Shown here: in pieces, positions 3,249 to 58,142 of the stretch
Numbering within the stretch: position 1 is the first letter of the stretch
How the letters are laid out: every line of letters starts with the position of its first letter
DNA from: Dehalococcoidia bacterium
Lineage (GTDB): Bacteria > Chloroflexota > Dehalococcoidia > DSTF01 > RBG-16-68-14
DNA length: 64,000 nt
NCBI GenBank assembly: GCA_040882355.1
Contig: JBBEBM010000054.1
Coordinates: 1 to 64,000 of the forward strand
Reading direction: 5' to 3'
The notes under the pieces: generated by a model
Told to the model about the DNA's origin: nothing
Seen by the model: the letters and a program-made list of their open reading frames with translations, nothing else
The model's database searches: none
Translations under genes and position numbers: made by a program

Positions 3249-3280
3249 AAACTACGCAGCACCGGTTGAGAACGTGTTGA
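3249..3280 (-). promoter_or_regulatory. TCAAC-N6-TCAAC box + -10 upstream of ugd
   Basis: Minus strand TCAAC(3280-3276)-N6-TCAAC(3269-3265)-N10-TAGTTT. Confidence 0.65.
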
Positions 3281-3607
3281 CATAGGCGGAGGGTTGTGAG
3301 GGCGTTCCCAGGTACGGCTCCCGGCAACCGCCCACGACCGCGCCGGGCCTGTTGGCCGCTTCGCTGCGCCCAACTGAGGCCAGAGAAATTCCTAGTGCTA
3401 TGGTTAGGCCGTTCATGACATCTACGTAACAGACTAGTCCACACCGCGTTAGAAGCATTGACAGGGGGTCAAGGCATTATGGAAAATGGGTAGATGCTCA
3501 CATGAGCAGGGGGAGCACGGGCGATAATCCGAAGCGGCAAATACGCTCAGCGTTGAGCATGACCCTCCTCCTCAAGGTGGCAAGCGTCCAGTCCAGTACA
3601 TAACTGC

Positions 3608-3635
3608 TTGACAAGAATAGGCATAGCCGTATAGT
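3608..3635 (+). promoter_or_regulatory. Sigma70-type promoter of the regulator operon
   Basis: TTGACA-N16-TATAGT in an AT-richer intergenic region. Confidence 0.6.
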
Positions 3636-3760
3636 GAGCGCGAGTGCCGGGGGAGACCAAGTCGCTCTAACCAGCGTCCCATCGTTACCCGCACGTCTAG
3701 TCGGCCCGCAGGAGGGACACATCGGACACGCCTAGTCCGGCCGACTGAGAAATGAGGAAT

Positions 3761-4438
3761 ATGGCGCTTCAGATCCTGGTGGCATCCGATCACGCGATCA
3801 TCCGCGATGCGGTGGTTGAGTTGCTTCGCGCCCAGCCGTCGCTACACCCTCGAGGGACGCGGCTAGACTCGCAAGAGGAGCACGTCGAGAAGGCGTCGCT
3901 CGTGCTCTGCATTCTCGACAAGCGGCCCGACATTGCCGACGTGGTCGCCGGGCTCAACCAGCGTCACCCGGCAGCTCCGGTGCTCTGCCTGCTGCTCACG
4001 CAAGACGATGAAGCGGTCGTCAGCGCACTCCGGTCCGGCGTTCGCGGCGTCATCGATGACACGTTCGATGGGGACCAGCTCATCGAGAGCATTCAGCAGT
4101 GCGCCGAAGGCCAGTTCGTGATGTCGAAGTCGCTCGCCACGCGCCTGGCGCAGCAGTACGCCTTCGGACCTGAGGCGGCGCCCACCACCGCTCCCGACGC
4201 GGACCTCACTCACCGCGAGAACGAGGTCCTGGGCCTACTGGCGGAGGGCTGCACGAATCGACAGATCGCCACGAAACTCTGCGTATCCGAGCACACCGTT
4301 CGCGCCCATCTAAGGGCGATCATGCAAAAGCTCCAGGTGAGCAACCGCGTGCAGGCGGCCACCATCGCCTGGCAGAGCCGGCTCACCCAGCGAGAAGTTG
4401 CTGGAAGAGGTGTTGGGCATGCCCATTCTCGTCGTTGA
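3761..4438 (+). CDS. NarL/LuxR-family response regulator with atypical receiver
   Basis: LTHRENEVLGLLAEGCTNRQIA..L.VSEHTVRAH HTH; N-terminal receiver-like fold. Confidence 0.88.
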   Translation: MALQILVASDHAIIRDAVVELLRAQPSLHPRGTRLDSQEEHVEKASLVLCILDKRPDIADVVAGLNQRHPAAPVLCLLLTQDDEAVVSALRSGVRGVIDDTFDGDQLIESIQQCAEGQFVMSKSLATRLAQQYAFGPEAAPTTAPDADLTHRENEVLGLLAEGCTNRQIATKLCVSEHTVRAHLRAIMQKLQVSNRVQAATIAWQSRLTQREVAGRGVGHAHSRR

Positions 4439-5099
4439 AGACGAACCCGACCTGAGCGACCTCCTACGCTACATCCTGCGACGCGCGGGACACGATGTCA
4501 TCGTCGCGTTTGATGGAGACGCGGCCCTCCGTATGTGGAGGGAGCAGAACCCGGAGCTGATCCTCCTGGACATCGGCCTGCCGCGGAAGGACGGGTGGGA
4601 GGTCTGCCGCGCGATCCGCAACGAGTCGCCCACCCCAATCGTGATCCTCACCGGGTCGGACGGCGACGAGGATATCGTCCGCGGCCTGGACCTGGGAGCG
4701 GACGACTACCTGGTCAAGCCGTTCAGCCCCAAGCAGCTTCAGGCGCGGGTGCGCGCTGTTCTGAGGCGGGCCGCGACGCGGGAGCCCGTGGACGCGAACT
4801 CCGCAATCAGCGCGGGTGACCTCACGATCGACGGACTCTGGCGTACCGTCGTCTGCGACAGTCACGAGATTCGCCTCACCCGGCTGGAGCATCGCATCTT
4901 GTATGACCTGGCGCTCCACCTGGGGCAAGTCGTGCCGCACGACGTCCTCATCCAGCGAGTCTGGGGTTACCCGGGCGAGGCGAACAGCAGCATCATCAAG
5001 GGCCACATTCGTAACATCCGGTCGAAACTCTCCGACATGGGCAGCGGTACAACCATCCGCGTCATCCCCGGCGTCGGCTATATGATGAGCGCCGGCTGA
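4419..5099 (+). CDS. OmpR/PhoB-family response regulator
   Basis: ILVVEDE, LILLDIGLP, GADDYLVKPF, winged helix ending IPGVGY; GAGGTG RBS. Confidence 0.93.
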   Translation: MPILVVEDEPDLSDLLRYILRRAGHDVIVAFDGDAALRMWREQNPELILLDIGLPRKDGWEVCRAIRNESPTPIVILTGSDGDEDIVRGLDLGADDYLVKPFSPKQLQARVRAVLRRAATREPVDANSAISAGDLTIDGLWRTVVCDSHEIRLTRLEHRILYDLALHLGQVVPHDVLIQRVWGYPGEANSSIIKGHIRNIRSKLSDMGSGTTIRVIPGVGYMMSAG

Positions 5100-5387
5100 C
5101 CACGCGACCGGTTTTGCACCCAAGAGACCCGTTTCTGCACCCGTTCCTGCCAGCGACGTCAACCCAGGTCGAGGGGGCAGCGGAGTACAACCAATTGCGT
5201 ACCACCCGTCGAGCAAGGATCGCCGCCCGGGTGCGTTGAGACACTGATATGGTATCGCTAGCAACCGCAAAGCACGGAGGCGCAATGACCAGGCATGAAG
5301 TCCGGCTGGGTGGCCGACGGTCTTCCCAGGGCAGCGCTCCCATGCGCCGTCCGGGGTTGGTCGAGGTCGCCTACCGTGAATGAGGTA

Positions 5388-6083
5388 ATGAGCATTAAGG
5401 TCCTACTCGCTGACGACGACCTCGACTTCCTCGACGTGACGGCGTATGCCCTGCGCCGCGCGGGCTTCCTCGTAACCGCCGTAGCGGACGGGGAGGAGGC
5501 GCTCGACTGCTGGAAGTCGGAAGACCCCGATATCGTCCTGCTGGACATCGCCATGCCGAAGAAGACCGGCCTGGAGGTCTGCCAGGCGATCCGCGGCGCG
5601 TCTGAAACGCCCGTGGTTCTCATCACCGGCCACAGGCGCGAGCACGAGATAGTTGAGGGCTTTGAGGCGGGCGCCGACGACTACGTAACGAAGCCCTTCA
5701 GCGTCCAGCACCTGGTAATGCGCCTGCGCGCCATCTACCGCCGCGCCTCCGGCCGCGCAGCCGACGTTGCGCCGCGCCGCCTCACGCTCGACCCACTCGT
5801 AATCGACCTGGACTCCTTCGAGGTCACGATCGATGAGGAGCCCGTGCGCCTGACGCGGCTCGAGTTTCAGCTCCTTTACTGCCTCGCCGCTAACGCCGGC
5901 CGCGTCGTGACAACGTCGCGCCTGATCGATTTCGCGTGGGGTCTCGACGGAGAGGGAGACGGCTCATTGCTCAAGACCCACTTCTCGCACATCCGCCGCA
6001 AGCTCCGGGAGGTCTCCGCCCATCCGATCAGCATCCAGGCGATCGCGGGCGTCGGGTACAGTCTCCACATCCACGCGAACTAA
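5388..6083 (+). CDS. OmpR/PhoB-family response regulator
   Basis: VLLADDD, VLLDIAMP, GADDYVTKPF, LTRLEFQLL, AGVGY; GAGGT RBS. Confidence 0.93.
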   Translation: MSIKVLLADDDLDFLDVTAYALRRAGFLVTAVADGEEALDCWKSEDPDIVLLDIAMPKKTGLEVCQAIRGASETPVVLITGHRREHEIVEGFEAGADDYVTKPFSVQHLVMRLRAIYRRASGRAADVAPRRLTLDPLVIDLDSFEVTIDEEPVRLTRLEFQLLYCLAANAGRVVTTSRLIDFAWGLDGEGDGSLLKTHFSHIRRKLREVSAHPISIQAIAGVGYSLHIHAN

Positions 6084-6105
6084 CAGACGCCCTCTTCACC
6101 TTCAG

Positions 6106-6137
6106 TCAACCCTGCATTAACTCCAACGCGAGACAAT
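6106..6137 (+). promoter_or_regulatory. TCAAC box + -10
   Basis: TCAAC-N6-TTAAC-N10-GACAAT. Confidence 0.55.
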
Positions 6138-6269
6138 ATGTCTTGAAGGATTGAGTGGTGCGTCGCTGGGCGCGCCCCTCGAGAAAACGATGGCGCTCGC
6201 GGCATGGACGCCCACCAGAGTCGAGCGGATCCCGTAACGAGCTACAGGCAACACTGGTTGGGAGAGCGA

Positions 6270-6986
6270 ATGAGCACCATCCTTTCCGAGCGAACGCGGA
6301 TCGTCTCCGAGCGACTGCGTCCCACAGAACAGACGACGCTCGCGCAGCGCCTGGCGCTGGTGGGCGAGACACCCCAGACAGGCCTGGCCTCCGCCTGCAA
6401 GCGCATTGTCGACCTGGCCGTCGCAGTCATTGCCATCCCGATCCTGGCCATCCCGGTGTTCGTGATTAGCCTGCTGATCCTGATCGACAACGGCTGGCCG
6501 ATCATCTTCGCTCAGGAGCGTCTAGGCAAGAACGGGCGACCTTTCACAGTCTACAAGTTCCGCTCCATGCGCAAGGACGCCGAGGAACGGCTGCATGAGG
6601 TGCTGGAGCACAATCACATCAAGGATGGGCCCACGTTCAAGCTGAAGGATGACCCGCGGATGACCCGCGTGGGGCGCTTCATCAGGCGCACCAGCCTGGA
6701 CGAGCTGCCGCAGATCTGGAACATCCTGCTCGGCCACATGAGCTTCGTCGGGCCGCGCCCGCCACTGGCCTCCGAGGTGCTGGAGTACGAGGACTGGCAG
6801 CTCCGCCGCCTGGCCGTGACACCGGGCCTGACCGGCCTCTGGCAAGTGAGCGGCCGGAGCGACCTGAGCTTCACGGAGATGGTGACGCTTGACATCGATT
6901 ACGTTGACCGCTGGTCGCCGGCCTACGACATCGCGCTGCTCGCGCGGACGCCTGTGGCCGTATTGAGCGGGCGCGGCGCATACTGA
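6270..6986 (+). CDS. Priming sugar transferase (polyprenyl glycosylphosphotransferase, WcaJ/CpsE C-terminal type)
   Basis: [53 protein letters not shown]. Confidence 0.95.
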
Positions 6987-7013
6987 ACGGGCGGAATCGA
7001 ACGAAACACGCTC

Positions 7014-7056
7014 TCCACGGCCCCTCAACTGCCCTTCAACGGCCTGCGCCTACCGT
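7014..7056 (+). promoter_or_regulatory. TCAAC box + -10
   Basis: TCCAC-N6-TCAAC-N6-TCAAC-N10-TACCGT. Confidence 0.68.
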
Positions 7057-7097
7057 GAGAGACGCAGGTTGAGCGCACCTCAACCGAGACTATCACC

Positions 7098-7700
7098 ATG
7101 AGCAGCATCGCACATGCCCTGCCCACCCTGACCCGGCTGCGCCGGCGCCTGCGCTCGCATTCGCCGTTCGAGTTCTTCTTCGGCTGGCTGCTCACCCGCC
7201 GCTTCGCGAGCGCAGGGGTCTGCACCGTCTCGCCGGGCTTCCCCAAGCCGCGCGTGATCGACTGGGGCGGCGAGATCCACGCCGAGGGCTGCGCGTTCTC
7301 GCCCGGGATGGTCTTCGAGGTCTTTTCGGGCGGCGTGATCCGGATCGGCAAGGGGACCATGTGCAACCAGAACGTGCGCATCGCCGCCGCGCGCGAGGTG
7401 AGCATTGGGCGGAACTGCCTCATCGGCTTCGATGTCGTCATCGCCGACAACGACCTGCACGAACGCCCCGGCCTCGGCCCGCCACGCCCAGTGCGCATCC
7501 AGGACAACGTCTGGATCGGATTTCGGGCGGCGGTCCTCAAGGGCGTGACCATCGGCGAAGGCGCCGTTGTCGGCGCGGGCGCGATCGTCACGGAGGACGT
7601 GCCGCCTCACACGCTGGTCGCCGGCCAGCCTGCGCAGACCGTGCGCCAGCTCCCGGAAACGATGGCATATCCGACGTATCTGGGCGTTATCGAGAGATGA
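7098..7700 (+). CDS. Hexapeptide-repeat acyltransferase
   Basis: VRIQDNVWIG..A.VLKGVTIGEGAVVGAGAIVTEDVP..AGQPA. Confidence 0.9.
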   Translation: MSSIAHALPTLTRLRRRLRSHSPFEFFFGWLLTRRFASAGVCTVSPGFPKPRVIDWGGEIHAEGCAFSPGMVFEVFSGGVIRIGKGTMCNQNVRIAAAREVSIGRNCLIGFDVVIADNDLHERPGLGPPRPVRIQDNVWIGFRAAVLKGVTIGEGAVVGAGAIVTEDVPPHTLVAGQPAQTVRQLPETMAYPTYLGVIER

Positions 7701-8785
7701 GCACGTTCCGGCCCGGATTCGTCCTGGAACAGACGCTTGGCCACGTCACGCACGGCCAGAACCTGCGGCGCTTCATCGGCCGTGAAGCCGGCGTCGAGCC
7801 GAGTTGGTACGACGTGCCGTTCCAGCCCGAGGGCACGCTTTACAGAGTGCCGCCGCTCTCGACGAACTGGAGCCTGAGGGGCAGCCTCTACGCCCGCCGC
7901 GCGCTCCAAGCCGACGGCTGGCGCGAGCTCGATGCGCTCTTCGTGCACACGCTGACGATCGCGCTCTTCGCGACGCCGTTCTACGACAGGATTCCGACGG
8001 TCCTGTCGTTGGACGCCACGCCAATCAACTTCGACAGCGTCGGCCGCCTCTACGGCCACGAGGCGCACCCCGGCGCGGTCGAGCGCGTCAAGCGAAACGT
8101 CGTGCGGCGGGCGGTCTCGCGCGCCGACGCGTTCGTGAGCTGGTCGGAGTGGGCCAAGCGCTCGCTCGTCGATGACTACGGCGCCGACCCGGACCGTGTG
8201 CTCGTCGCCGCGCCCGGCGCTGACCTCGACCTGTTCCCTGCCGGCATCCGGCGCGAAGGCGACGGCCCGGTGCGCATCCTCTTCGTCGGGGGCGACTTCG
8301 TCCGCAAGGGAGGCGACACCCTGCTCCAGGCGTACCGCGATCGGCTGCAGGGCCGCGCAGAGCTGCACTTCGTCACTGCGCACCAGATGCCAAACGAGGA
8401 GGGCGTCTTCATCCACAACGGCGTCAAGCCTAACTCACTCGAGCTGCTGGAGCTCTTCAATACCGCCGACATCTTCGCGCTGCCGACGCGTGGCGACTGC
8501 CTCGCCGTCGTCCTGGGCGAGGCGATGGCTGCATCGTTGCCGATCATCACGACCGCCGTCGGCGCCCATGCGGAGGCAGTCGAGCAAGATCGGTCCGGCC
8601 TGCTCGTCCCGCCCGACAACCTCGAGGCGCTCGGTGACACGCTGGAGACGCTAGTGAACGACCGGGCGCTGCGCCAGGCGATGGGCGCGCGCGGCCGCGA
8701 AATCGCCGAGGAGCGCTTCGACGCGAAACGCAACGCTCTGGCGGTGCTGGATCTGATGCGCGACGTCGCCGGGAGGAGCCGCTAG
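7697..8785 (+). CDS. Glycosyltransferase family 4
   Basis: RILFVGGDFVRKGG, ADIFALPT, EAMAASLP; ATGA overlap at 7697. Confidence 0.9.
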   Translation: MSTFRPGFVLEQTLGHVTHGQNLRRFIGREAGVEPSWYDVPFQPEGTLYRVPPLSTNWSLRGSLYARRALQADGWRELDALFVHTLTIALFATPFYDRIPTVLSLDATPINFDSVGRLYGHEAHPGAVERVKRNVVRRAVSRADAFVSWSEWAKRSLVDDYGADPDRVLVAAPGADLDLFPAGIRREGDGPVRILFVGGDFVRKGGDTLLQAYRDRLQGRAELHFVTAHQMPNEEGVFIHNGVKPNSLELLELFNTADIFALPTRGDCLAVVLGEAMAASLPIITTAVGAHAEAVEQDRSGLLVPPDNLEALGDTLETLVNDRALRQAMGARGREIAEERFDAKRNALAVLDLMRDVAGRSR

Positions 8786-8788
8786 TCC

Positions 8789-9709
8789 ATGCGCTGGCTG
8801 GTGACGGGCGGAGCGGGCTTTATCGGCAGCCATGTGGTCGATGCGTTGATGGCGCGCGGCGAAGATGCGGTGGTCGCGCTCGACAACCTGCGCCGCGGCC
8901 GCTGGGAGCACCTCAGCGCACACGATGGCGATCCTCGCCTCGCGCGCCTCGACGCTGACATCCGCGACGCGGACGCAGTGCGCGAAGCCTGCGCAGGCGT
9001 CGACATCGTCGTTCACCTCGCGGCCCAGTCGAATGTGCTGGGGGCGAGCAAGGACGTCCACTACTCTAGCGAGACGAACGTCGTCGGCACGGTCAACGTG
9101 CTCGCCGGCGCGCTCGACGCGGGCGTGCGACGGGCCGTCTTCACCTCGTCTCGCGAGGTCTACGGCGACCCGGAGGAGCTGCCCGTGCGCGAGGACCGCC
9201 CTCTCGCGCCGAAGAACTTCTACGGCGCGAGCAAGGCAGCCGGCGAGGCGTACTGCGGCGCGTTCCGCCAGCGCGGGCTGGACGTTCGCACGCTTCGTCT
9301 TGCCAACGTCTACGGCCCACGCGACACCCAGCGCGTCATCCCGCTCTGGCTTGATAGGGCACAGCGCGGCCTCGACCTGGAGGTCTACGGCGGCAAGCAG
9401 GTGCTCGACTTCATCTGGATCGACGTCGTTGTCGAAGCGCTGTTGCGCGCTGCCGACCTCGACTCGCTCAGCGAACCGGTCAACGTCGGCAGCGGGCAGG
9501 GCACGCCGATCATCAAGCTCGCCGAACGGATCCTGAGCGCGAGCGGCGGCGGCTCGTCGATCCGAATCATGCCAGCGCGCGAAGAAGAGGTCGTGCGTTT
9601 CGTCGCCGACACGCAACGCATGCGAGACATCCTGGGCCTGGCGCCGCCCGACGACCCGCTCGCCCACCTGCCGCTTCTCGCCGGCCAGCAGGTCGAGGCG
9701 CACGCGTAA
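8789..9709 (+). CDS. NAD-dependent epimerase/dehydratase (UDP-sugar 4-epimerase-like)
   Basis: LVTGGAGFIGSH, HLAA, YGASK, NVYGP. Confidence 0.9.
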   Translation: MRWLVTGGAGFIGSHVVDALMARGEDAVVALDNLRRGRWEHLSAHDGDPRLARLDADIRDADAVREACAGVDIVVHLAAQSNVLGASKDVHYSSETNVVGTVNVLAGALDAGVRRAVFTSSREVYGDPEELPVREDRPLAPKNFYGASKAAGEAYCGAFRQRGLDVRTLRLANVYGPRDTQRVIPLWLDRAQRGLDLEVYGGKQVLDFIWIDVVVEALLRAADLDSLSEPVNVGSGQGTPIIKLAERILSASGGGSSIRIMPAREEEVVRFVADTQRMRDILGLAPPDDPLAHLPLLAGQQVEAHA

Positions 9710-10899
9710 TGTTCGCCGACCTCGTTTCGGCGGCCCTCTGGCCGCTGCTCGCGCTCTCCGCTGCCGCGTCGGCCTTCCTGCTGCTGCTCACGCTGGCGGC
9801 GCTGGCCTACCGCCCACGAACGCTACCGGCCGCCGGCCCGCGGAGGCGGTTTGCGATCATCGTGCCCGCTCACAACGAGGAGTTGCTCATCGGCGACTTG
9901 CTCGATAGCCTGGCCCGCCTCGCGTATCCTACGAACCGTTACGCCGTCCACGTCATCGCTGACAACTGCACGGACGCTACGGCGGAGGTCGCCGAGCGAC
10001 ACGGCGCCACGGTCCACATTCGCCAGGACGCGTCGCAGCCCGGCAAGGGCCAGGCGTTGCGCTGGGTGCTAGAGCGCCTGCGCGAGGATGGGGCGGATGC
10101 CTTCGCCTTCGTGGATGCGGACTCCCGGTTGTCCGAGAACTTCCTTGACGTGATGGATCGCCGGCTCGCTTCGGGAGGGTCGTCGGTCTTGCAGACCAGC
10201 TATCGCGTACAGGATCCCGAATCGGCGCCTCTCGTCGCATTGCGGGCGATGGGCTTCGCGCTGATGCACGACCTGCGCGGGCGCGGAAAGGCGCGCCTCG
10301 GCCTCTCGTGCGGGCTCTGGGGCAACGGCATGGTCTTCGCGCGACCCGTGCTGGACGCGATCGGGTGGCAGAGTTCCTCCGCCGTCGAGGACGCCGAACA
10401 GCACCTGCAGCTCCTCCTCCGGGGGGAGCGCGTCGCCTATGCGCCCGAAGGGCGCGTGTATGGCCACATGCCCGCGACCTTCGGCGCCGCCCGAGGCCAG
10501 CAACAGCGCTGGGAGGGCGGACGGAGGGGTCTCATCGGCCGGTACTGGCGTCCGCTGCTCCAGGCCAGCCTGCGCCAGCGACGCGCTTCGCCTGCCGCCG
10601 CGCTCATCGAGGCGGCGCTGCCGCCGCTCTCAGCGCTCTGTGTAGCGGCCGCCGTCCTCGGTGTCGCAGCCTGGGTGTGCGGTTCGCCAGGCCAGGTCGC
10701 GCTGAGCGCCGCCAACGTCGGGGGCCTCGCGAGCTACGTCGTCGTCGGTCTGCTGCTCTCAGGCCTGCCCGCACGCACGTACGTGGCGCTGGTCCACGCG
10801 CCTCGATTCGTCATCTGGAAGGTCTGGCTCTATCTACGGGAGCTGATCAGCCGCCGCCAGCCGGCCTGGACTCGCACCACGCGCGAGCGCCTCGGTTAG
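9709..10899 (+). CDS. Membrane GT2 glycosyltransferase
   Basis: IIVPAHNEE, ADNCTD, GKG, DAD, ED, QQQRW; N- and C-terminal TM segments. Confidence 0.9.
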   Translation: MFADLVSAALWPLLALSAAASAFLLLLTLAALAYRPRTLPAAGPRRRFAIIVPAHNEELLIGDLLDSLARLAYPTNRYAVHVIADNCTDATAEVAERHGATVHIRQDASQPGKGQALRWVLERLREDGADAFAFVDADSRLSENFLDVMDRRLASGGSSVLQTSYRVQDPESAPLVALRAMGFALMHDLRGRGKARLGLSCGLWGNGMVFARPVLDAIGWQSSSAVEDAEQHLQLLLRGERVAYAPEGRVYGHMPATFGAARGQQQRWEGGRRGLIGRYWRPLLQASLRQRRASPAAALIEAALPPLSALCVAAAVLGVAAWVCGSPGQVALSAANVGGLASYVVVGLLLSGLPARTYVALVHAPRFVIWKVWLYLRELISRRQPAWTRTTRERLG

Positions 10900-11666
10900 T
10901 GTCCTTCGTCCGTCGCTGGTAGCGCGATGCAGAAGCGCGCGCCATCCGCCGCGCCCGACTCAACCCACGCGCGCCCGCCGTGCGCCTCGGCAAGCGACTT
11001 CACGATGTGCAGGCCGAGTCCCTGTCCACCACCGTTCGCACCGGCGAGCCGCACGAACGGCTTGAACACCACCGTGCGCATCTCCTCGGGGATTCCCGGT
11101 CCTTCGTCTTCGACTTCCAGCGCCACCTCCGGGTGAGCGCTGTCCGGCATGCGCAACCGCGCGAGCACGGTGCTCCCGCGCGGCGAGTACTTGAAGGCGT
11201 TGTTCAGCAGGTTCTCGAGCATGCGGCGGAGCTTATCGCGGTCGGCCCGCACCTTGAGGCCGGAAGCGGGCAGCTCGACCATGAGCCTGTGGGTGGGCTG
11301 GAACTCCTGATACTCCTTGCAGATCTCTCGAACGAGGTCCGTCAGGTCGACGACGGCAGGGTGGAGGCGGATCTCGCCGGACTCCAGGTTCGCGTACTCA
11401 ACGAGGTCCTGGATCATGTTCTGGAGGCGCTGCGCCTGCCGCTGGATGACCGTGATGAGATGCGTCGAGTCGTCCGGCTGGAGCTCCTGCTCAAGCAGCT
11501 CGGCCGACGTGGCGATCGTCGTGAGCGGCCCGCGCATGTCGTGGGCGACCGCCGCCGCGAACTCGATCGGGCCCTTCAGCGGCAGCGCCAGCTCCGTCCC
11601 GCCGTTGAGCCGGGCCGGTGGTGTCGACTTGCGGGGCGGACGGCGGTTCGTCGTGCTACTCCCCAT
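10896..11666 (-). CDS. Histidine kinase (HisKA+HATPase) lacking a sensor domain
   Basis: AHDMRGPL, NLLNNAFKYS, DEGPGIP, FKPF, GQGLGL; no TM segment. Confidence 0.9.
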   Translation of the reverse strand: MGSSTTNRRPPRKSTPPARLNGGTELALPLKGPIEFAAAVAHDMRGPLTTIATSAELLEQELQPDDSTHLITVIQRQAQRLQNMIQDLVEYANLESGEIRLHPAVVDLTDLVREICKEYQEFQPTHRLMVELPASGLKVRADRDKLRRMLENLLNNAFKYSPRGSTVLARLRMPDSAHPEVALEVEDEGPGIPEEMRTVVFKPFVRLAGANGGGQGLGLHIVKSLAEAHGGRAWVESGAADGARFCIALPATDEGH

Positions 11667-12507
11667 AGCCGGCCACCTCAAGCTCCAGAGTGTCCTTGCG
11701 CGTCAGCCGCATCCGGCGAGCCGTCTCGGCTAGCAGAAGTCGACCGGCGAAGGGAGCATCCTGTAGGAGATACCTTCGCCAGAGGCGACGAGGCTCGCTG
11801 TAGAGCCGGTGCATCCACTCCAAGCCCAGGCGTTGCATCGGCCTTGGAGCCCGCGCGACAGTTCCGTTCAGGAAGTTGAACGAGCCGCCGACGCCGATGG
11901 AGACGGGCACGCCCAGTGTTTCGCGGTGGTCGTGGATCCAGAGGTCTTGCTTTGGACAACCAAACGCGACGAACAGCGCATCGGGCCTGGCGGCTTTGAC
12001 ACGCGATACGATCTCGTCGTCGAGTGCTGCCGGGAAGGGGTACGCGTACTCGGGCGGCGAATAGGCGCCGCAGACCTGCGCTCCGGGAAAGCGCTCCTCG
12101 AGAACGCTTGCCGCTTGCTCCGCCACGCCGGGCCCCGCGCCCAGCAGGAACATCCGATAGCCGTGCTCCGCCGACAGGGCCGCGCAGGCCTCGATCAGAT
12201 CGGGCCCCGTGACGCGCTCGCACGTCCCGAGGCCTAAGTAGTGGGCGATCCAGACGAGCGGCGCGCCGTCAGGCACGGCCAGGTCGGCGCCGTTGATGAT
12301 CTGGTTGAACTGTGGGAGTGTCTTCGCGATCCGGAGGAAGTCCAGGTTCACCGTGACGACCTGGCGAGGACGTCCCTCCTGGAAGAATGCGCCGAGGCGT
12401 TCCGCGGCGGAGCGCCGGTCGACCGCGTGCACCCAGGTGTCGAATACTCGGATGCGAGGGGCTGTTGGGTGATGGCCGTTCGTGGAAGTCTGCGGCTGGA
12501 TCTGCAT
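11656..12507 (-). CDS. WecB/TagA/CpsF (GT26) glycosyltransferase
   Basis: VTVN, VPDG, RVTGPDL, VAFGCPKQD, GVGGSF, RAP...GLEW..RL..EP.RLWRRY. Confidence 0.95.
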   Translation of the reverse strand: MQIQPQTSTNGHHPTAPRIRVFDTWVHAVDRRSAAERLGAFFQEGRPRQVVTVNLDFLRIAKTLPQFNQIINGADLAVPDGAPLVWIAHYLGLGTCERVTGPDLIEACAALSAEHGYRMFLLGAGPGVAEQAASVLEERFPGAQVCGAYSPPEYAYPFPAALDDEIVSRVKAARPDALFVAFGCPKQDLWIHDHRETLGVPVSIGVGGSFNFLNGTVARAPRPMQRLGLEWMHRLYSEPRRLWRRYLLQDAPFAGRLLLAETARRMRLTRKDTLELEVAGYGE

Positions 12508-13083: not shown

Positions 13084-13126
13084 TTAACCGCGCCTCAACC
13101 CGCTCTCAACGGAGCCTGGCTAGCAT
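13084..13126 (+). promoter_or_regulatory. TCAAC box + -10 of the wzz operon
   Basis: TTAAC-N6-TCAAC-N6-TCAAC-N10-TAGCAT. Confidence 0.7.
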
Positions 13127-13192: not shown

Positions 13193-14227
13193 ATGAGTCT
13201 TCGCATGCTTGACCTTGTGTTTCGCCACAAAGTGCTGCTCATCGTGCCGGTGCTGCTCGGCCTGGTGCTGGGCATCGCCTGGTTCGTATCCAGCATGAAG
13301 GACGAGTACGTCTCAGATGCTTCCATCAAGGTGGAGCGTCCCTCATTCCTGCCAACCGCGTTCGAGTTCAACCCGTACCTCTCCGCCGCTCAGAACCAGA
13401 CCGAAGCGATGGTGGAGCTGCTCCCGACGGACACCTTCAGCGCTGCGGTCCTGGCGCGCGCCAACGATCAGATCGGTGAATGTGGCGTGCCCGCCCTGAC
13501 CTACTATGATCTGCTCGGCGGCACGTCGATCACGCCCGCGGGAAACACGATCGTGAGCTTGTCCTATCGCTCGAGTTCGCGTTGTGTCGCCCCAATTGTT
13601 GTTCAAGCGCTCTACGATGAGTACACCGGGGTCTTCGATCTCAAGGTCCAAGCGGACGCTGAGGAAGCCGTGAAGTTCTACACAGGCCAGCTCGATATCG
13701 CGGCCCAGAACCAGGTCACGGCGACCGGAGATTTCAGAGCGTACGTCAGTACGCGGCCTGAATATGCGAACATCGTCGACATCACGAAGCCAGGGGCGGA
13801 GGCGATCGCCGACGAGCAGTATCTCCGCCTTTCTTCGGCGGTCCAGATTTACAAGGACAACTACCAGGTCACGCTTGCCCAGCTTCAAGCAGCGCAAGAC
13901 TTGGCCAACGCCTCCACGAGCGGCTCAGCGACCTTCGAGCTGTATGACCCGCCTAATGAGCCGAACCTGCCGATTGCGCTTGGAACGCGGGCAGTGGCAA
14001 CCAAGCCGGTGATGGGACTCGCGGCTGGCCTCATCGTCAGCGCGGGGCTCTTCTTCGTGCTGTGGCGCCGAGACCGAACGGTGCGCATGGCCACGGACCT
14101 GAACTTCCTGGGCAACGGCGCACCGGTCATGAGCCTGCCCACCCTGCGCTCCAACCGGCGCCGCTGGCCGCGGTCGTTCGTCAGGCTGGCGACGGGTCTC
14201 ACAAACGGAATGAACCACCTTGGCTAG
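13193..14227 (+). CDS. Polysaccharide co-polymerase / chain-length determinant (Wzz/CapA-like)
   Basis: Two TM helices flanking a coiled-coil extracytoplasmic region, YVSDASI, DPP..P motif; AGGAGAGG RBS. Confidence 0.75.
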   Translation: MSLRMLDLVFRHKVLLIVPVLLGLVLGIAWFVSSMKDEYVSDASIKVERPSFLPTAFEFNPYLSAAQNQTEAMVELLPTDTFSAAVLARANDQIGECGVPALTYYDLLGGTSITPAGNTIVSLSYRSSSRCVAPIVVQALYDEYTGVFDLKVQADAEEAVKFYTGQLDIAAQNQVTATGDFRAYVSTRPEYANIVDITKPGAEAIADEQYLRLSSAVQIYKDNYQVTLAQLQAAQDLANASTSGSATFELYDPPNEPNLPIALGTRAVATKPVMGLAAGLIVSAGLFFVLWRRDRTVRMATDLNFLGNGAPVMSLPTLRSNRRRWPRSFVRLATGLTNGMNHLG

Positions 14228-14237
14228 AGAGGCAGAT

Positions 14238-15002
14238 ATGCGCGCGGAAGCCATCAACACCAAGAGGCTCGGGCGATCACGGGCCCGCAAGCCCGCCCTG
14301 AGCGCCAGCGAGGAACGCAATCAGCTCCTGGCCGAGATCAAGGACGACATCGCGATCGCGTGCCCCGAGTACGCCGATCTGGCGAAGACGCTCCGCAGCT
14401 TTGCCGCGCGTTACCTGGTCAAGGAGGAGCCGCAAGGGCTGCTCCTGGGCGTCGTGAGCGCTGAGAGCGGCGAGGGGCGGACAACCGTCAGCCTTGGTCT
14501 GGCTGGTGCGCTCGCCGATATGTGCGCGAATGTCGTCTTGATCGAGATGGCCGCTCAACAGGGGAGCCAGCCGTCGTTCACCGAGGAGTTGGGCCTCAGC
14601 CCTAGCGCAGGCCTGGCCGGCGTTCTCCAGGAACGCGCGTCGATCGAGGACGTGGTGCAGCCCACAGCGAAGGGCAACCTCTGGATCCTCCCGGCAGGCC
14701 AGAACGGCAAACATGATGGTCGGGTGCTGTCGCCGAGCGCGACACGCGCGCTGCTGGCTAAGTTGCGCGGCCGGTACGCCGTGTCCCTGTTCGATGTGCC
14801 TGCCGTGCTCGAGGACGAGGAAGCGCCGTCCTTCGTCGGCCAGCTAGACGGGGCGGTCCTGGTGGTCTCGGCCGGAAAGACGACGGTCGACGAGGTCAAC
14901 GCTACTATGGCGCTTCTGGGGGACGTGCCCCTGCGGGGCGTTCTCCTGAACCAGGTCCACGAGCATGCTCCCCGCTGGCTGGCCTCGCTCCTCGAGGCAT
15001 AG
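14238..15002 (+). CDS. CpsD/CapB-family BY-kinase-like protein (degenerate)
   Basis: VVSAESGEGRTT, NLWILPAG, FDVPA, DGAVLVV, GVLLN. Confidence 0.8.
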   Translation: MRAEAINTKRLGRSRARKPALSASEERNQLLAEIKDDIAIACPEYADLAKTLRSFAARYLVKEEPQGLLLGVVSAESGEGRTTVSLGLAGALADMCANVVLIEMAAQQGSQPSFTEELGLSPSAGLAGVLQERASIEDVVQPTAKGNLWILPAGQNGKHDGRVLSPSATRALLAKLRGRYAVSLFDVPAVLEDEEAPSFVGQLDGAVLVVSAGKTTVDEVNATMALLGDVPLRGVLLNQVHEHAPRWLASLLEA

Positions 15003-15029
15003 CCCCGGCGCATCAGAGGAAACCCCCGC

Positions 15030-15167
15030 ATGAACCTGATGATGCTCGGCCTGTTCGGCTTCATTGCCCTGGGCCTGCTGCGCGCGCCCGACCTGCGCAC
15101 CCACCTGCTGGTGCTCGTCATCGCTATCTGCCTCGTTTCGGCGTACTGGCTGACAGGACGGGTCTAA
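15030..15167 (+). CDS. Small two-TM membrane protein (45 aa), absent from the ORF track
   Basis: MNLMMLGLFGFIALGLLRAPDLRTHLLVLVIAICLVSAYWLTGRV*; AGAGGA RBS; fills the operon gap. Confidence 0.65.
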   Translation: MNLMMLGLFGFIALGLLRAPDLRTHLLVLVIAICLVSAYWLTGRV

Positions 15168-15172
15168 CAGGG

Positions 15173-16684: not shown

Positions 16685-17586
16685 CCAAGATGTCCGCGGT
16701 GATCTGCACCAAAGGGCGCCCTGACCTGATCGGGCAGGCCGTGGGCAGCGTCCTCGCGAACGAGCACCCGTCATTCGAGCTGCTGGTGATCGACCAGAGC
16801 TCCGACGATTCGACGGAGCGCGCTCTCGACGCGTATCGAAGCGATGAGCGCCTTCGTTATGTCCACTTAGACCGCGTGGGCCTCTCCGCGGCCTACAACA
16901 CCGGCATTGCGCTGAGCGCGGCGCCGCTGCTGGCCTTCACCGACGACGACTGCATCGCGCCGCCGGACTGGCTGGCGGCGATCGAACGCGCCTTCCAGCG
17001 GCACGCCGACGTCGAGCTGCTCTACGGCCAGACGCTGACGGCGCCGGAGCTGAAGGCCGCCGCCGGCGTTGTGCCCGAGCTGGCGATCAGGCGCGAGGAG
17101 AAGCTGGGCAAGGAGCAGGGCTTTCGCATCTACGGCATGGGCGCCAACTTCGCCATGCGCCGCTCGCTGATCGAGCGGATCGGCGGCTTCGATGAGGCGC
17201 TGGGTGGGGGCGGACCGCTTCGCTCGTCACAGGACTTCGATTTCCAGTACCGGGCGTTTCGATCGGGCGCCGTCTGCCTGCTCTCGCCCGAGGTCTGGGT
17301 GCACCACTACGGCATCCGGCGCGGCCAGGAGTGGACCGACACCATGACGGCCTACGGTGTCGGCGACGGGGCCTTCTACATGAAGCACGTGCGCTGCGGC
17401 GATCTGACGGCGCTACGACTGCTGCTCGGCCGTGTAAGCCGCTTGCTTGCCCGCGAGATGGTCAATCCGATCCGTCGCAAGCCGACTCAGTGGCCCTACC
17501 TGCGCTCCTACTTCGAGGGCATGCGGCGCAGCCTGCGATACGACATCGACCGGGAGAAGCGGCTCTACCGGCTGGCCGGGAGCTAA
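16681..17586 (+). CDS. Glycosyltransferase family 2
   Basis: SAVICTKGR, IDQS, FTDDDC, GANFAM, GGFDE. Confidence 0.92.
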   Translation: MTKMSAVICTKGRPDLIGQAVGSVLANEHPSFELLVIDQSSDDSTERALDAYRSDERLRYVHLDRVGLSAAYNTGIALSAAPLLAFTDDDCIAPPDWLAAIERAFQRHADVELLYGQTLTAPELKAAAGVVPELAIRREEKLGKEQGFRIYGMGANFAMRRSLIERIGGFDEALGGGGPLRSSQDFDFQYRAFRSGAVCLLSPEVWVHHYGIRRGQEWTDTMTAYGVGDGAFYMKHVRCGDLTALRLLLGRVSRLLAREMVNPIRRKPTQWPYLRSYFEGMRRSLRYDIDREKRLYRLAGS

Positions 17587-17592
17587 CCACCG

Positions 17593-23758: not shown

Positions 23759-23790
23759 ACCTTATCGCCCAGGGGTTGAGGGTGAGTTTA
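23759..23790 (-). promoter_or_regulatory. TCAAC box + -10
   Basis: Minus strand TAAAC-N6-TCAAC-N10-TAAGGT. Confidence 0.6.
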
Positions 23791-25279: not shown

Positions 25280-25311
25280 TCAACCGCCTCTCAAGTCTGA
25301 GAAGCTACATT
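25280..25311 (+). promoter_or_regulatory. TCAAC box + -10
   Basis: TCAAC-N6-TCAAG-N10-TACATT. Confidence 0.65.
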
Positions 25312-32586: not shown

Positions 32587-32629
32587 TCAACCTTGTTTCA
32601 ACAGGCGAGCATCTCGCGATGAGTAACAT
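32587..32629 (+). promoter_or_regulatory. TCAAC box + -10 at 21 nt
   Basis: TCAAC-N6-TCAAC-N21-TAACAT. Confidence 0.55.
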
Positions 32630-33625: not shown

Positions 33626-33668
33626 TCAACTTCGTCTCAACCTGGCTCGAAGCTAGCGCTGATATGAT
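33626..33668 (+). promoter_or_regulatory. TCAAC box + -10 at 21 nt
   Basis: TCAAC-N6-TCAAC-N21-TATGAT. Confidence 0.6.
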
Positions 33669-52846: not shown

Positions 52847-52989
52847 AGGTTTTCGTCGCCGGCGGCGTCTAGCTTCGTCGCTGGCCCTCTCTAGATACAA
52901 CTCCAGACTAGTCATCCTGGGTTGAGAAAACCCTTCAGCAGGGTGTAGATGAAGTACGAAGGGAGTTTTGCAGCAGATTCCTGTTGAAT

Positions 52990-55460: not shown

Positions 55461-56425
55461 TGCGAGTACGCCCCGTACAGCCGCCGGTATGCTCTGCCGC
55501 CTGCCACCGTGAGCACGAGCACGCGCACGAAGCTCGTATAGAACCTGCTGTCCAGCAGGACGGCCGGCGATCGCGAGAGCATCGCGGCCAGCCCCCTCCA
55601 GGCCCGGCTCTTGCGCAGGTGGGACAGGTCGTACCAGAGCTGGAGGAACAACGCGCGCCGGCGAGCGGGCCGCCAGAGCGCCGCCAGCTCGGCGGCGGAT
55701 GGCGGGAGCAGCGCGAAGTTGCGATCGACCACGAGCAGGTTCTCATCGATCGCCTGACCTGGCGTCGCCTTCGCGTGACTCATGTTGTTGTCGTGTACGC
55801 GGTAGGCGTAGCACGGCTCGGCCACGTAACCCACGGCGGAGACGGTCGCGATGCGAAGCCACAGGTCCCAATCGGCGGTATTGGGCAGACGCTGGTCGTA
55901 CCCGCCGAGCTGCTCGAGGCAGGTCCGGCGCACGAGCGTGCCGGAGTGAAGCACGTAGTCGAACTCAATCAGCCGGGTGAACTCGTCCAGACCATCGACG
56001 ACGAGGTCGTGGTCGGAAAACTGCGAAACGGAGCGCTCGCGGCCCGTCGAATCGACCACCTTGTGCGCGCAGTGGACGAACCCGACGTTGGGGTAGCGCT
56101 CGAATAGCGCGACCTGGCGCGCGACGGCGTCGTCCCGCGTGGCGAAGTCGTCCGCGTCGATCGATCCCACGTAGTCCCCTCGAGCCAGCGCGATACCCTC
56201 GTTGTGGCTCCAGATGTGCCCCATGTTGCGTTCGTGACGCACCACCCGTACCCGAGGATCGCTCTCGTAGCGCGCGAGCACGTCGGCGGTGCCGTCGGTG
56301 GACACGTCGTCGATCACGATCAGCTCAAGCTCTTTGAGCGTCTGATTGAGGAGGCTATCGATCGCCTCGCCAATATACCCCTCGTAGTTGTATGAGGTGA
56401 CAACGAAGCTGACTTTGGGCTTCAC
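55457..56425 (-). CDS. Glycosyltransferase family 2
   Basis: VSFVVTSYN, IDDVSTDGT, DADD, DWDLWLR; GTG start. Confidence 0.92.
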   Translation of the reverse strand: MKPKVSFVVTSYNYEGYIGEAIDSLLNQTLKELELIVIDDVSTDGTADVLARYESDPRVRVVRHERNMGHIWSHNEGIALARGDYVGSIDADDFATRDDAVARQVALFERYPNVGFVHCAHKVVDSTGRERSVSQFSDHDLVVDGLDEFTRLIEFDYVLHSGTLVRRTCLEQLGGYDQRLPNTADWDLWLRIATVSAVGYVAEPCYAYRVHDNNMSHAKATPGQAIDENLLVVDRNFALLPPSAAELAALWRPARRRALFLQLWYDLSHLRKSRAWRGLAAMLSRSPAVLLDSRFYTSFVRVLVLTVAGGRAYRRLYGAYSQ

Positions 56426-56432
56426 AGGAGCG

Positions 56433-57998
56433 TTACTCCCCCGGCCCGTCGACAGGCGTCGAACGCGACTCGGCCCGGTCCAAGACGTAGGAACGCAGCG
56501 CCCGGAGGTCCTTCGGCGAGACGGTGCCCAGCGCGAGAGACGCGCCACCGTAGACGGTGGCTCCGACGAGGACCACGAACGGCAGGTACATCTCTCGCAG
56601 CGGCCAGATCAGGGCGGCCATGAGCGCGCCCGCAGCCAGACACTTGAGGGCAACCATCAGGCTGCTCCGCTCGAAGACGCCCTCGCCTCGCAGCAGGAGC
56701 AGACCCATCACCATCATGAACAGCTCGGTGATCACCGTCGCGGTCGCGGAGCCGATAGCACCGTTGTTATAGGCGGCGTCCGTCACCGGGATGAGGATAC
56801 AGTTGATCGCGGGGTTGAGCAGCGCCGCCGCGACCGCCATGATCGCCCACATGCGCTGCTTGTCGAGCGAGTTCAGCGCGGTGCCGATCATCATGTCCGC
56901 CCCCATAATCGGAATGTGCATGGCGAGAATGATGATGAGCGGTGTCGATCGTGTGAACTCGCCCCAGCCGAGAAAGTAGACGAGCGGCTCCGCGATCACC
57001 ATCGTGCCGAGCGCGATCGGCACAGTAGCGACCAGCACGACCTGCATCGCCCGCCGCGCGATCGCATCGAAGGCCGGCCGATCATGCTCCGCGGCGCTCG
57101 CCATCGCCGGGAAGACCGCTGTCATGATAATCATCGGGATGAAGACCGGGATCGAGACGATGCGGTACGCAGCCCCGTACCACCCAATCACGGCCTCCGT
57201 CGTGAAGAAGGACAACAGGATCACGTCGACCTGTCCGTAGATCAGGAGCGCCGACTGCCAGACGAAGAAGGGCAGCCCAGCGAACAGGAGCGGACGCCAG
57301 GTCGCGACGTCGATCCGCCCGCCGATGGCGCGATTCCTGACGACCGCGAGGAAGTAGCCGCCGACCCCAAGCGAGCCGGCGAGCACCCAGGCGAGCACAA
57401 CGCCATGCACACCCTGGCCCTGCGAGAGAAAGAGCGCGACGAGCGCGAGCAGCGTCAATTTCGAGAGCGAGTTGACCAGCGCCACCGGGCGCATCTCCTG
57501 CAGGCCCTGGAGCGTGCCCGTTAGGATGCCCGTCACCGACACGACGGCGATATTGACACAGTACAGATAGATCAGCTCCATGGTGGAAGGGCTGTAGCCA
57601 AGGAGGAGCGCCAGCCCGACAGCCATGCCGCTGGCGGCGAGGACCAGCGGGACACGTGAAGCGAGCGCGTTCAGCACCTGAGGAGCCGCCGCCTGCCTGC
57701 TTCGCGCAACCTCCTTCGTGAGGTAGATGGCTGTGCCCAGGCTGGCGAGCAGCCCGAACAGCTCGGTGAACGAGGAGGCTAGCGTGAGCCGCCCGAGCGC
57801 GACATCGCCGATGTAGCGCGGGAGCACGACCGCGAGACCTGCTGCTGAGAGCCACGTGAAGACCTGGGCGAACCCCAGCGCCAGGATGTTGCGCACAATG
57901 CGCGTGCCGCCGGCGAACCCGTCGCCGCGCGCGGGGCTATCGCCGGCAGGACCGCGCGCGGGCCGCGCTCCGGGGAGTGTTCCGCTTTCAACCGTCAC
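56433..57998 (-). CDS. wzx: Polysaccharide flippase (Wzx)
   Basis: About 14 TM segments, RNIL, PRYIG, IY.QVD..L, G.YGAAYR, GAIG.A.AT; start uncertain (57998/58034). Confidence 0.9.
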   Translation of the reverse strand: MTVESGTLPGARPARGPAGDSPARGDGFAGGTRIVRNILALGFAQVFTWLSAAGLAVVLPRYIGDVALGRLTLASSFTELFGLLASLGTAIYLTKEVARSRQAAAPQVLNALASRVPLVLAASGMAVGLALLLGYSPSTMELIYLYCVNIAVVSVTGILTGTLQGLQEMRPVALVNSLSKLTLLALVALFLSQGQGVHGVVLAWVLAGSLGVGGYFLAVVRNRAIGGRIDVATWRPLLFAGLPFFVWQSALLIYGQVDVILLSFFTTEAVIGWYGAAYRIVSIPVFIPMIIMTAVFPAMASAAEHDRPAFDAIARRAMQVVLVATVPIALGTMVIAEPLVYFLGWGEFTRSTPLIIILAMHIPIMGADMMIGTALNSLDKQRMWAIMAVAAALLNPAINCILIPVTDAAYNNGAIGSATATVITELFMMVMGLLLLRGEGVFERSSLMVALKCLAAGALMAALIWPLREMYLPFVVLVGATVYGGASLALGTVSPKDLRALRSYVLDRAESRSTPVDGPGE

Positions 57999-58007
57999 TT
58001 CACTAAC

Positions 58008-58142
58008 AGCTAAGCAACGTCGCGTTGCGGGCACGTTGAGAAGGGGTGGAGCTTGGATTCAGACAGCTTCGGAGCCGGGCTGGCGCGGCCAACGCCTTCT
58101 CGACTCAGCTTCATCGGCCCGTCAACCGTTTCGGGCCACGAT
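58008..58142. promoter_or_regulatory. Divergent pair of TCAAC boxes
   Basis: Minus: TCCAC-N6-TCAAC-N6-GCAAC (58050-58024)-N10-TTAGCT; plus: TCGAC-N6-TCATC-N6-TCAAC (58100-58126)-N10-CACGAT. Confidence 0.55.

Follow-up and report, generated by a model that had tools for sequence, protein, structure and literature searches.

We analysed the repeated TCAAC motif, and the regulators that may read it, in the first 64 kb of the 81-kb contig C54 (JBBEBM010000054.1) of a Dehalococcoidia bacterium; this 64,000-nucleotide (nt) stretch is referred to below as the window. The genome comprises 3.33 Mb in 82 contigs at ~66% GC, and C54 makes up 2.4% of it. Pfam and NCBIfam scans of 47 window proteins show that positions 900-63,000 form a single large envelope-glycan and surface-protein locus. 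Its sugar-precursor genes encode UDP-glucose dehydrogenase (UGDH) and epimerases. The transferases are a priming Bac_transf enzyme, a WecG/TagA-type enzyme, many members of glycosyltransferase families GT2 and GT4, and two PMT_2 (GT-C) enzymes. Assembly genes encode a weak Wzz-like protein, a BY-type tyrosine kinase, a Wzy polymerase, a Wzx-type flippase and an ABC-2 exporter. The surface proteins include a DUF4082/Ig-domain giant, an S8-protease/PKD giant and a flexitail protein. Two response regulators of the OmpR family, here called RR1 and RR2, are encoded near the left end.

A preliminary description of this DNA had listed eleven sites at which TCAAC half-sites, repeated with an 11-bp period and pointing towards a gene, are followed by a -10-like hexamer. 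On re-reading the sequence, all eleven were found at the same coordinates, on the same strands and with the same hexamers. The sites and the genes that they precede, their putative targets, are as follows, distances being those between the box and the hexamer.

3249..3280, minus strand: box TCAAC-N6-TCAAC (3265-3280), 10 nt, hexamer TAGTTT (3249-3254); targets are the UDP-glucose dehydrogenase gene (ATG at 3237, 11 nt past the hexamer) and an epimerase gene.
6095..6137, plus strand: box TTCAC-N6-TCAAC-N6-TTAAC (core 6106-6121), 10 nt, GACAAT (6132-6137); the box lies 38 nt past the RR2 stop in the window, the target is the priming sugar transferase gene (Bac_transf, 6204-6986), and 12 orthologous loci conserve this promoter.
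7014..7056, plus strand: box TCCAC-N6-TCAAC-N6-TCAAC, 10 nt, TACCGT; target operon for a hexapeptide acyltransferase, GT4, epimerase and GT2 (7098-10899).
13084..13126, plus strand: box TTAAC-N6-TCAAC-N6-TCAAC, 10 nt, TAGCAT; target operon for the Wzz-like protein, BY tyrosine kinase, Wzy and glycosyltransferases (13193-21750).
23759..23790, minus strand: box TAAAC-N6-TCAAC, 10 nt, TAAGGT; targets are two genes, 23729-23211 and 23220-21778, that match no family.
25280..25311, plus strand: box TCAAC-N6-TCAAG, 10 nt, TACATT; targets are the two PMT_2 (GT-C) glycosyltransferase genes (25328-28337).
32587..32629, plus strand: box TCAAC-N6-TCAAC, with a candidate -10 TAACAT at +21 (32624-32629) and none at +10; target is a short DMFA2_C paralogue.
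33626..33668, plus strand: box TCAAC-N6-TCAAC, with a candidate -10 TATGAT at +21 (33663-33668); target is the gene for a DUF4082/DMFA2_C/Ig-domain surface protein of 1,500-1,600 amino acids (to 38506).
52905..52925, minus strand: half-site with proximal TCAAC (52921-52925) and distal unit GAAGG, 10 nt, TAGTCT; targets are a GNAT gene (52846-52010), an epimerase-aminotransferase gene and possibly the S8/PKD giant gene (49685-43446).
58008..58050, minus strand: box TCCAC-N6-TCAAC-N6-GCAAC, 10 nt, TTAGCT (weak); targets are the Wzx-type flippase and three glycosyltransferase genes (57896-52990).
58100..58142, plus strand: box TCGAC-N6-TCATC-N6-TCAAC, 10 nt, CACGAT; target is a GT4 gene with GTG at 58149.

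Most of these sites carry a third, weaker upstream unit (nnnAC) in the 11-bp register, and some a fourth. Their flanks share no similarity, apart from those of the 32587 and 33626 sites, which lie in duplicated upstream regions and so count as one event. The predicted regulon extends beyond the window, with sites at 66852-66867 (minus strand) and 66982-66997 (plus strand) of C54; these occupy the spacer that separates a PqqD-like/AsnB-like operon from a divergent carbamoyltransferase gene. By contrast, no TCAAC box was found upstream of the regulator operon or of the operon formed by the WecG/TagA-type and kinase genes. The preliminary description had also placed surface-protein genes in the regulon. 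This holds for the giant DUF4082 gene, which is boxed, and not for the flexitail-domain gene (28427-30934, minus strand; NF041520, 102 bits against a cutoff of 40), which has no TCAAC box upstream.

The frequency comparison that the preliminary description had proposed was run, and the motif proved commoner than in shuffled sequence. Exact TCAAC-N6-TCAAC occurs five times in the window compared to 0.03 expected, a count reached in none of 100 shuffles; with at most one mismatch, there are 13 occurrences compared to 1.74 expected and a shuffle maximum of 6. At this stringency the whole genome holds 66 matches, and C54 accounts for 15. Each of these 15 is intergenic and faces a gene start that lies 283 nt or less downstream, unlike the matches elsewhere, of which 34 out of 51 fall inside called coding sequence, as expected by chance. 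When all pentamers were scanned without bias at periods of 8-22, TCAAC at period 11 was the sole outlier, with 6 occurrences in the 9,578 nt of intergenic DNA in the locus versus 3 in 649,713 nt of other intergenic DNA. Outside the locus, the genome contains four exact box matches. Two extra-locus candidates, C82:16981-16996 ahead of an uncharacterised gene of 338 codons and C28:30297-30312 about 240-440 nt ahead of a DarA-like gene, were set aside as probably chance or weak sites; both read TGAGnT, not TAnnnT, at +10.

The boxes are phased with the -10 element. At 7 of 13 sites, the box is followed at +10 by TAnnnT (background 0.005 per position; binomial P = 1.3e-13), and nAnnnT stands there at 9 of 13; TAnnnT occurs at +21 or +22 in three sites and at no other offset within 0-35. 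None of the 51 matches outside C54 has TAnnnT at +10. The box promoters also lack a -35 element: their best match to TTGACA averages 1.7 of 6 positions and none of the 13 reaches 4, compared to a mean of 2.5 among 5,710 generic intergenic TAnnnT sites, 15% of which reach at least 4. Ordinary promoters of the genome do carry a -35, for example that of the regulator operon, and a consensus scanner run over 3200-7200 reported promoter-like sites only at 3608-3635 and 3458-3487, not at the three box promoters of this region. Gene-oriented repeats of 11 bp, a spacing of ~10 nt and a missing -35 are sequence features of promoters of the PhoB/CiaR class II type. This match draws on the 10-nt spacing described for CiaR (PMC3091779) and on the pho box that replaces the -35 (PMC4971064). 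The geometry first proposed, 11-bp direct repeats that end 10 nt before the -10 and replace the -35, was thereby borne out by the TAnnnT and TTGACA counts.

Two transcripts may have little or no leader. The GTG of the GT4 gene at 58149 sits 6 nt past its hexamer, so that this transcript is probably leaderless, and the position of the ATG at 3237 suggests a near-leaderless transcript for the dehydrogenase gene. Within 32541-33868, in the surface-protein region, a short paralogue (32639-33316) duplicates the 5' part of the giant DUF4082/DMFA2_C gene together with the DNA upstream of it; the box and a leader segment, CATG[AC]... GCGGGTGCCTCGC, are common to the two copies. Near the 25280-25295 box of the divergent GT-C operon, the longest frame of a minus-strand gene with GT2 and GtrA domains (23859-25283) reaches the box on its 5' side. 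The gene caller had misplaced the start of that gene at 24758, inside the GT2 domain.

The locus encodes the following regulatory components.

3608..3635, plus strand: consensus sigma-70-type promoter TTGACA-16-TATAGT, boxless, ahead of the regulator operon (LuxR-type gene and RR1).
3752-4438, plus strand: LuxR/GerE-type regulator that opens the regulator operon; its degenerate receiver matches Response_reg at E = 9e-4, short of the Pfam cutoff.
4419-5099, plus strand: RR1, OmpR-family response regulator; its start overlaps the last 20 nt of the LuxR-type gene.
5388-6083, plus strand: RR2, response regulator of the OmpR family whose receiver is canonical; putative reader of the box.
10896-11681, minus strand: short histidine kinase (HisKA and HATPase_c, without a sensor or membrane domain).
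11656-12507, minus strand: WecG/TagA-type transferase gene; the kinase gene is co-oriented and overlaps its end.

Both RR1 and RR2 are members of the OmpR/PhoB family by domains and residues. They score 102 and 99 bits, respectively, for Response_reg (cutoff 30.2) and 60 and 68 bits for Trans_reg_C (cutoff 26.2), and their translations contain canonical phospho-acceptor sets of an acidic pair, the acceptor aspartate, threonine or serine, and lysine (VEDE, LLDIGLP, ILTG and VKPF in RR1; ADDD, LLDIAMP, LITG and TKPF in RR2). They fall below every curated NCBIfam equivalog cutoff tested (PhoB, MtrA, OmpR, CpxR, WalR/YycF and others). The best equivalog is MtrA, with 196 bits for RR1 and 182 for RR2 against a cutoff of 300, and PhoB (TIGR02154) gives 173 and 155 bits against 296. 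Activators of the SARP type (Streptomyces antibiotic regulatory protein) have an OmpR-type DNA-binding domain fused to a bacterial transcriptional activator (BTA) domain, without a receiver. The BTAD domain was found in none of the 47 window proteins scanned, and RR1 and RR2 carry receivers, unlike cluster-situated activators of this type. Among named records, those nearest to the regulator gene are metagenome-assembled genomes (MAGs) labelled Dehalococcoidia (68% identity) and Chloroflexota (49%). They place the host in Chloroflexota and speak against the actinobacterial origin that its GC content would suggest.

RR2 aligns end to end with RegX3 (2oqr, E = 1.1e-45) and RpaA (9dvt, E = 1.9e-40), its segment SLLKTHFSHIRRKL aligning with the segments KTLDVHVKRLRSKI and ETIRVHIRHLRTKL of those proteins. 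In this alignment, the helix with which solved family members read DNA corresponds to LLKTHFSHIRRKL in RR2 and IIKGHIRNIRSKL in RR1. From what is known of the family, we take the helix segments SIIKGHIRNIRSKL of RR1 and SLLKTHFSHIRRKL of RR2 to be the recognition helices. For CiaR, the equivalent 13 residues are given as the recognition helix (PMC3091779). With RegX3, RpaA, MtrA, PrrA and PhoP of Mycobacterium and cyanobacteria, the closest solved structures, RR2 shares the full-length OmpR-family architecture; it differs from the RegX3/RpaA group in helix residues at variable positions, as expected for a different half-site.

The other two components show features of their own. In the LuxR-type protein, the acidic pair reads SD and the conserved lysine is absent; the protein is kept in the full modules of the related genomes G019, G318, G167 and G199. 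The sensor-less kinase gene always follows the WecG/TagA-type gene in orthologous loci (10896-12507 here; L015 2547-4114; L040 14729-16683; L049 4674-6269).

Conservation was surveyed in 400 other genomes of the class, one of which (G266) is unpublished; no result depends on it. Close homologues of RR2 are patchy, being found in 12 of the 400 at E of 1e-52 or better. The full module, i.e., LuxR-type protein, RR1, RR2, WecG, short kinase, UGDH, Bac_transf, Wzz-like protein, BY-kinase and Wzy, recurs in G019, G318, G167, G199 and a named MAG contig, L049. In G019, TCAAC-N6-TCAAC is followed after 10 nt by TAGGCT, and two further boxes have TAATCT and TACAAC; G318 has five boxes across ~50 kb, with the +10 hexamers TAATCT, TATCGT, TAGATT, CATTGT and CAATCT. 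Across G019, G318 and G093, TAnnnT stands at +10 in 8 of 17 boxes (at most one mismatch) compared to none of 11 in unrelated loci. Ten paralogous OmpR-type loci of the relatives (33,260 nt) contained no box.

Footprinting of orthologous promoters resolved the conserved positions. Among 16 relatives with usable DNA after the RR2 stop in a metagenome scan, 10 have a box 23-51 nt past that stop, followed after exactly 10 nt by nAnnAT. A global MAFFT alignment of the spacers downstream of RR2 was uninformative (41% mean identity) and was replaced by a box-anchored alignment of 12 orthologous promoters. In this alignment, the only columns conserved at 80% or more are AC (-23, -22), T.AAC (-15 to -11), TCAAC (-4 to 0) and.A..AT (+12, +15, +16), which gives the consensus AC..T.AAC..TCAAC..(10 nt)..A..AT. 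Pairwise identity is 79% in the motif columns and 33% in all other columns. The hexamer at +10 fits nAnnnT in 11 of the 12 promoters; G019 reads TACAAC.

We also surveyed the class with a composite pattern (box, N10, TAnnnT, one mismatch allowed) and its reversed form as control. Composite matches exceeded the control in G000 (9 versus 0), G019 (4 versus 0) and G318 (5 versus 0). In a reciprocal test, G093, G333, G036 and G024 were chosen solely on their composite excess (4 versus 0 each), and three of the four (G093, G333 and G036) have boxes adjoining a tandem pair of OmpR-type genes. Overall, at least eight families of the class show an RR2-type helix paired with T[CT]AAC repeated every 11 bp. 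Bare-box counts at genome level were considered as a marker and rejected, since carriers and non-carriers cannot be told apart by them; it takes the composite with the -10 hexamer to distinguish module loci from AT-richer DNA. G006, which has no RR2 orthologue, contains seven exact boxes, none with TAnnnT at +10, five in open-frame stretches and one rRNA-like.

These comparisons bear on which regulator reads the box. The RR2-type helix LKTHxSH[IL]RxKL is kept in every box-bearing genome, even where, as in G036, G333 and G093, the paralogue next to the boxes is just ~30% identical to RR2, whereas the RR1 helix KGHIRNxRxKL drifts between lineages to KGHLSAIR and KARISSIR. G037, a genome 99% complete, has no RR1 orthologue and yet holds 14 exact boxes versus 2 for the control, with a perfect triple repeat ahead of its kinase-RR2 operon. 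The genus g29 has a kinase and an RR2-like gene only; there the variant TTAAC-N6-TTAAC occurs 20 times in five genomes versus 0 for the control, and TTAAC-N6-TTAAC-N6-T[AC]CAC precedes each kinase-regulator operon. Given the constancy of its helix, the drift of RR1, and the situation in G037 and g29, RR2 (5388-6083) appears likelier than RR1 to be the reader. The proposal that one or both adjacent OmpR-family regulators co-activate the genes of the locus thus gains support from co-occurrence and phylogenetic footprinting, which point to RR2 as the likelier of the two.

Several RR2-type proteins lack the acceptor aspartate, namely those of G167 (L037 5285-5938, LLSAEMS), G036 (L083 1510-2118, VLAMDE), G333 (L082 1105-1770, VLGVDR) and G093 (L081 1498-2172, VLGVSE), and appear to be phosphorylation-independent regulators. 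In the g29 genomes, the kinase-regulator operons have a leader of ~300 nt past the TTAAC boxes that is conserved between genomes (L045 190-520; L047 ~1840-2170; L048 ~1635-1965) and may be a structured RNA.

The arrangement resembles several known systems. PhoB binds as a dimer to a 22-bp pho box that contains two direct repeats of 7 bp and replaces the -35 in Escherichia coli (PMC4971064). As in that system, the putative reader here belongs to the OmpR family, the box is built of two direct repeats of 11 bp (with 7 conserved bases and 4 variable ones in the pho box) suited to a head-to-tail dimer, and the box stands next to the -10 (PMC4971064). The present system differs in its TCAAC half-site, in targets that belong to an envelope-glycan locus and not a phosphate regulon, and in regulators that are not PhoB, and its binding sites are putative ones. 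CiaR of Streptococcus recognises TTTAAG-N5-TTTAAG at a distance of 10 from the -10, a spacing that has been used to predict promoters, and across species its recognition helix and the motif are conserved together (PMC3091779). The 11-bp-period direct repeat exactly 10 nt from the -10 and the joint conservation of helix and motif recur here; half-site, helix (VVEVYVSKVRKKL in CiaR versus LLKTHFSHIRRKL in RR2), phylum and target genes differ. CiaR sites have been verified by binding and transcript mapping (PMC3091779), whereas those described here were recognised in the DNA sequence.

Two further systems offer parallels. In Streptomyces coelicolor, PhoP operators are arrays of 11-nt units, two to six or more in number, in which a well-conserved core is joined by weaker extension units that are bound cooperatively (PMC2275107). 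The strong proximal pair with weaker nnnAC units would be comparable, although the Streptomyces unit is of the GTTCAC type, the regulons differ, and cooperative extension is here an analogy only. In the Wzx/Wzy-type synechan cluster, the kinase, receiver protein and DNA-binding activator XssS-XssR-XssQ are encoded within the cluster, which is not a single operon, and the activator binds consensus sites upstream of several of its targets (PMC13125312), which makes this module a functional analogue. The targets of XssQ are glycosyl- and sulfotransferase genes only, whereas polymerisation and export genes are also boxed in the present locus; no homology is claimed.

Taken together, the confinement of the motif to the locus, its phasing with the -10, the missing -35 and its conservation alongside one regulator family make it likely that the TCAAC repeats are binding sites for a locus-encoded regulator of the OmpR/PhoB family, most probably RR2. 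We infer binding, and activation over repression, as follows. Two to four winged-helix domains, each on its own 11-bp unit, would line up head-to-tail along one DNA face in an array that would end 10 nt before the -10 and occupy the position of the missing -35. The array would recruit or stabilise the housekeeping RNA polymerase by class II activation, as do PhoB and CiaR. About 13 promoters over ~64 kb would then fire together, driving nucleotide-sugar synthesis, the priming transferase, Wzz/BY-kinase/Wzy/Wzx, glycosyltransferases, GT-C enzymes, the giant surface protein and a neighbouring cluster for peptide maturation. Expression of the regulators would come from the ordinary, constitutive-type promoter at 3608-3635, and the sensor-less kinase beside WecG is presumed to be the source of phosphoryl groups and hence of the signal.

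RR1 (4419-5099) may read the boxes in place of RR2, or share them in a mixed array or heterodimer, for example with RR2 on the two conserved proximal units and RR1 on the weaker nnnAC units. Because receivers of the OmpR family dimerise in many solved structures, a predicted RR1-RR2 complex would not tell these readings apart. RR1 adjoins RR2 wherever the module is complete and possesses a conserved helix of its own, the third and sometimes fourth units are present at most window sites, and the upstream paralogue keeps the acceptor aspartate in G167, G036 and G093, where the RR2-type protein has lost it, as in a division of labour. We nevertheless regard this reading as unlikely: the boxes of G037 and g29 have no RR1 orthologue nearby, the RR1-type helix varies while the box stays constant, and neither the pentamer-by-period scan nor the box-less upstream regions yielded another periodic motif in the locus that RR1 or the LuxR-type protein could read. 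A more elaborate division is rather improbable. Under it, RR2-type proteins would read T[CT]AAC across Dehalococcoidia, RR1 would keep the phospho-switch and join RR2 on the weak upstream units in a mixed array, and the kinase would report, within the cell, the state of lipid-linked precursor synthesis, so that feedback sets the whole programme. RR2-type proteins would have given up phosphorylation in several lineages, and the kinase is always paired with a WecG/TagA-type gene; if this reading were true, ~45 genes under 13 promoters, with the peptide-maturation cluster, would be set by pathway feedback and not by an external signal.

Boxes that serve as repression operators, with the regulator covering the -35 region and blocking polymerase until a signal arrives, are very unlikely. 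The array does overlap a region that polymerase must contact, and some PHO boxes of Streptomyces PhoP act negatively when they overlap promoter elements (PMC2275107). There is, however, no -35 element to occlude, the boxes leave the -10 and the start site uncovered, and a strict 10-nt, one-face register with the -10 is a requirement of activators. It is very improbable indeed that the boxes are read by the LuxR-type protein (3752-4438), or that TCAAC serves an alternative sigma factor as its upstream element. The LuxR-type gene heads the regulator operon, is conserved in the full modules and encodes a protein with weak matches to helix-turn-helix models of sigma-70 region 4. GerE-type domains, however, usually read inverted repeats, and no LuxR-type homologue was found beside the G037 or g29 boxes. 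As for sigma factors, Pfam detected no such gene in the locus; gaps between TCAAC and hexamer of 10 and 21 nt are, respectively, too short and too long for the -35/-10 spacing of sigma-70 or extracytoplasmic function factors, and the sigma-54 consensus is unlike the box. Finally, the repeats could be chance matches or remnants of a dispersed repeat without a regulatory role, given the duplicated origin of the 32587 and 33626 sites and the exact matches elsewhere in the genome. The shuffle controls, restriction to the locus, orientation and dissimilar flanks of the other sites all oppose this, and the phasing with the -10 and the cross-genome promoter footprint refute it for practical purposes.

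Several observations weigh against assigning the boxes to an activator of the RR2 type. The full module conserves RR1 and the LuxR-type protein as well, so that a joint role is possible. A search for sequencing runs that contain this DNA gave five DNA-type runs from two studies and no RNA run, a result without bearing on expression. Two window sites have a hexamer only at +21 and one is a half-site, and TAnnnT stands at +10 in none of the 13 boxes of the G167, G199 and G037 loci. The density of bare boxes in AT-richer unrelated loci (0.72 per 10 kb) is near that of module loci, and the composite pattern is noisy in lower-GC genomes, where the control is also high (G290, 9 versus 7; G365, 10 versus 2). 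The fourth genome of the reciprocal test, G024, has divergent, correctly phased boxes with no OmpR-type gene within 10 kb, and its best genome-wide match to the RR2 DNA-binding domain is 31%. The genomes compared are related and not independent samples; the position weight matrix was trained on the same sites that it ranks first; and gene calls came from a crude caller based on GC content at third codon positions (80% coding), which makes the intergenic labels approximate.

The boxes of G024 (L080 9623-9831; G024:C6:1075606-1075846) each have one mismatch and stand 10 nt from TAGACT or TATGGT. The pair is flanked by an uncharacterised gene of 568 codons and by genes for a GT4 enzyme, a PIG-L deacetylase and an ABC exporter.

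Our literature searches found no work linking TCAAC, 'direct repeat' and 'response regulator'. In the sources accessible to these searches, there was no described transcription-factor regulon from Chloroflexota or Dehalococcoidia, and nothing specific on regulators of Chloroflexi or Dehalococcoidia or on exopolysaccharide regulation. The system is a familiar activator design newly seen in a little-studied class, and extends present knowledge without overturning it. Most of this class is uncultured, and the helix LKTHxSH[IL]RxKL with T[CT]AAC at an 11-bp period provides a testable regulator-motif pair, along with a promoter architecture and a predicted regulon for cell-surface glycan machinery. 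The pair could be used to annotate promoters and operon starts in MAGs. By analogy with synechan, a co-expressed regulator might also activate such a cluster in a heterologous host.

Under the 66852 box lies a minus-strand cluster that spans 59325-64000 of the window and 64100-66760 of C54 (L017 100-2760). It looks like a peptide-maturation cluster for ribosomally synthesised and post-translationally modified peptides. No transglutaminase-type peptidase was seen in it; a lasso-type product is possible. Its genes, all on the minus strand, begin with a PqqD-like gene and an Asn-synthase-like gene, followed by two tandem paralogous small open reading frames and the remaining genes.

63619-63768, minus strand: small open reading frame of 49 amino acids.
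~63322-63485, minus strand: small open reading frame of 54 amino acids; both frames begin MGIRK[TA]YEKPVLLPYGDIRAIT.
62259-63236, minus strand: HPr-kinase-like gene.
60462-62262, minus strand: ABC-2 exporter genes.
59325-60452, minus strand: NTP_transf_5 gene.

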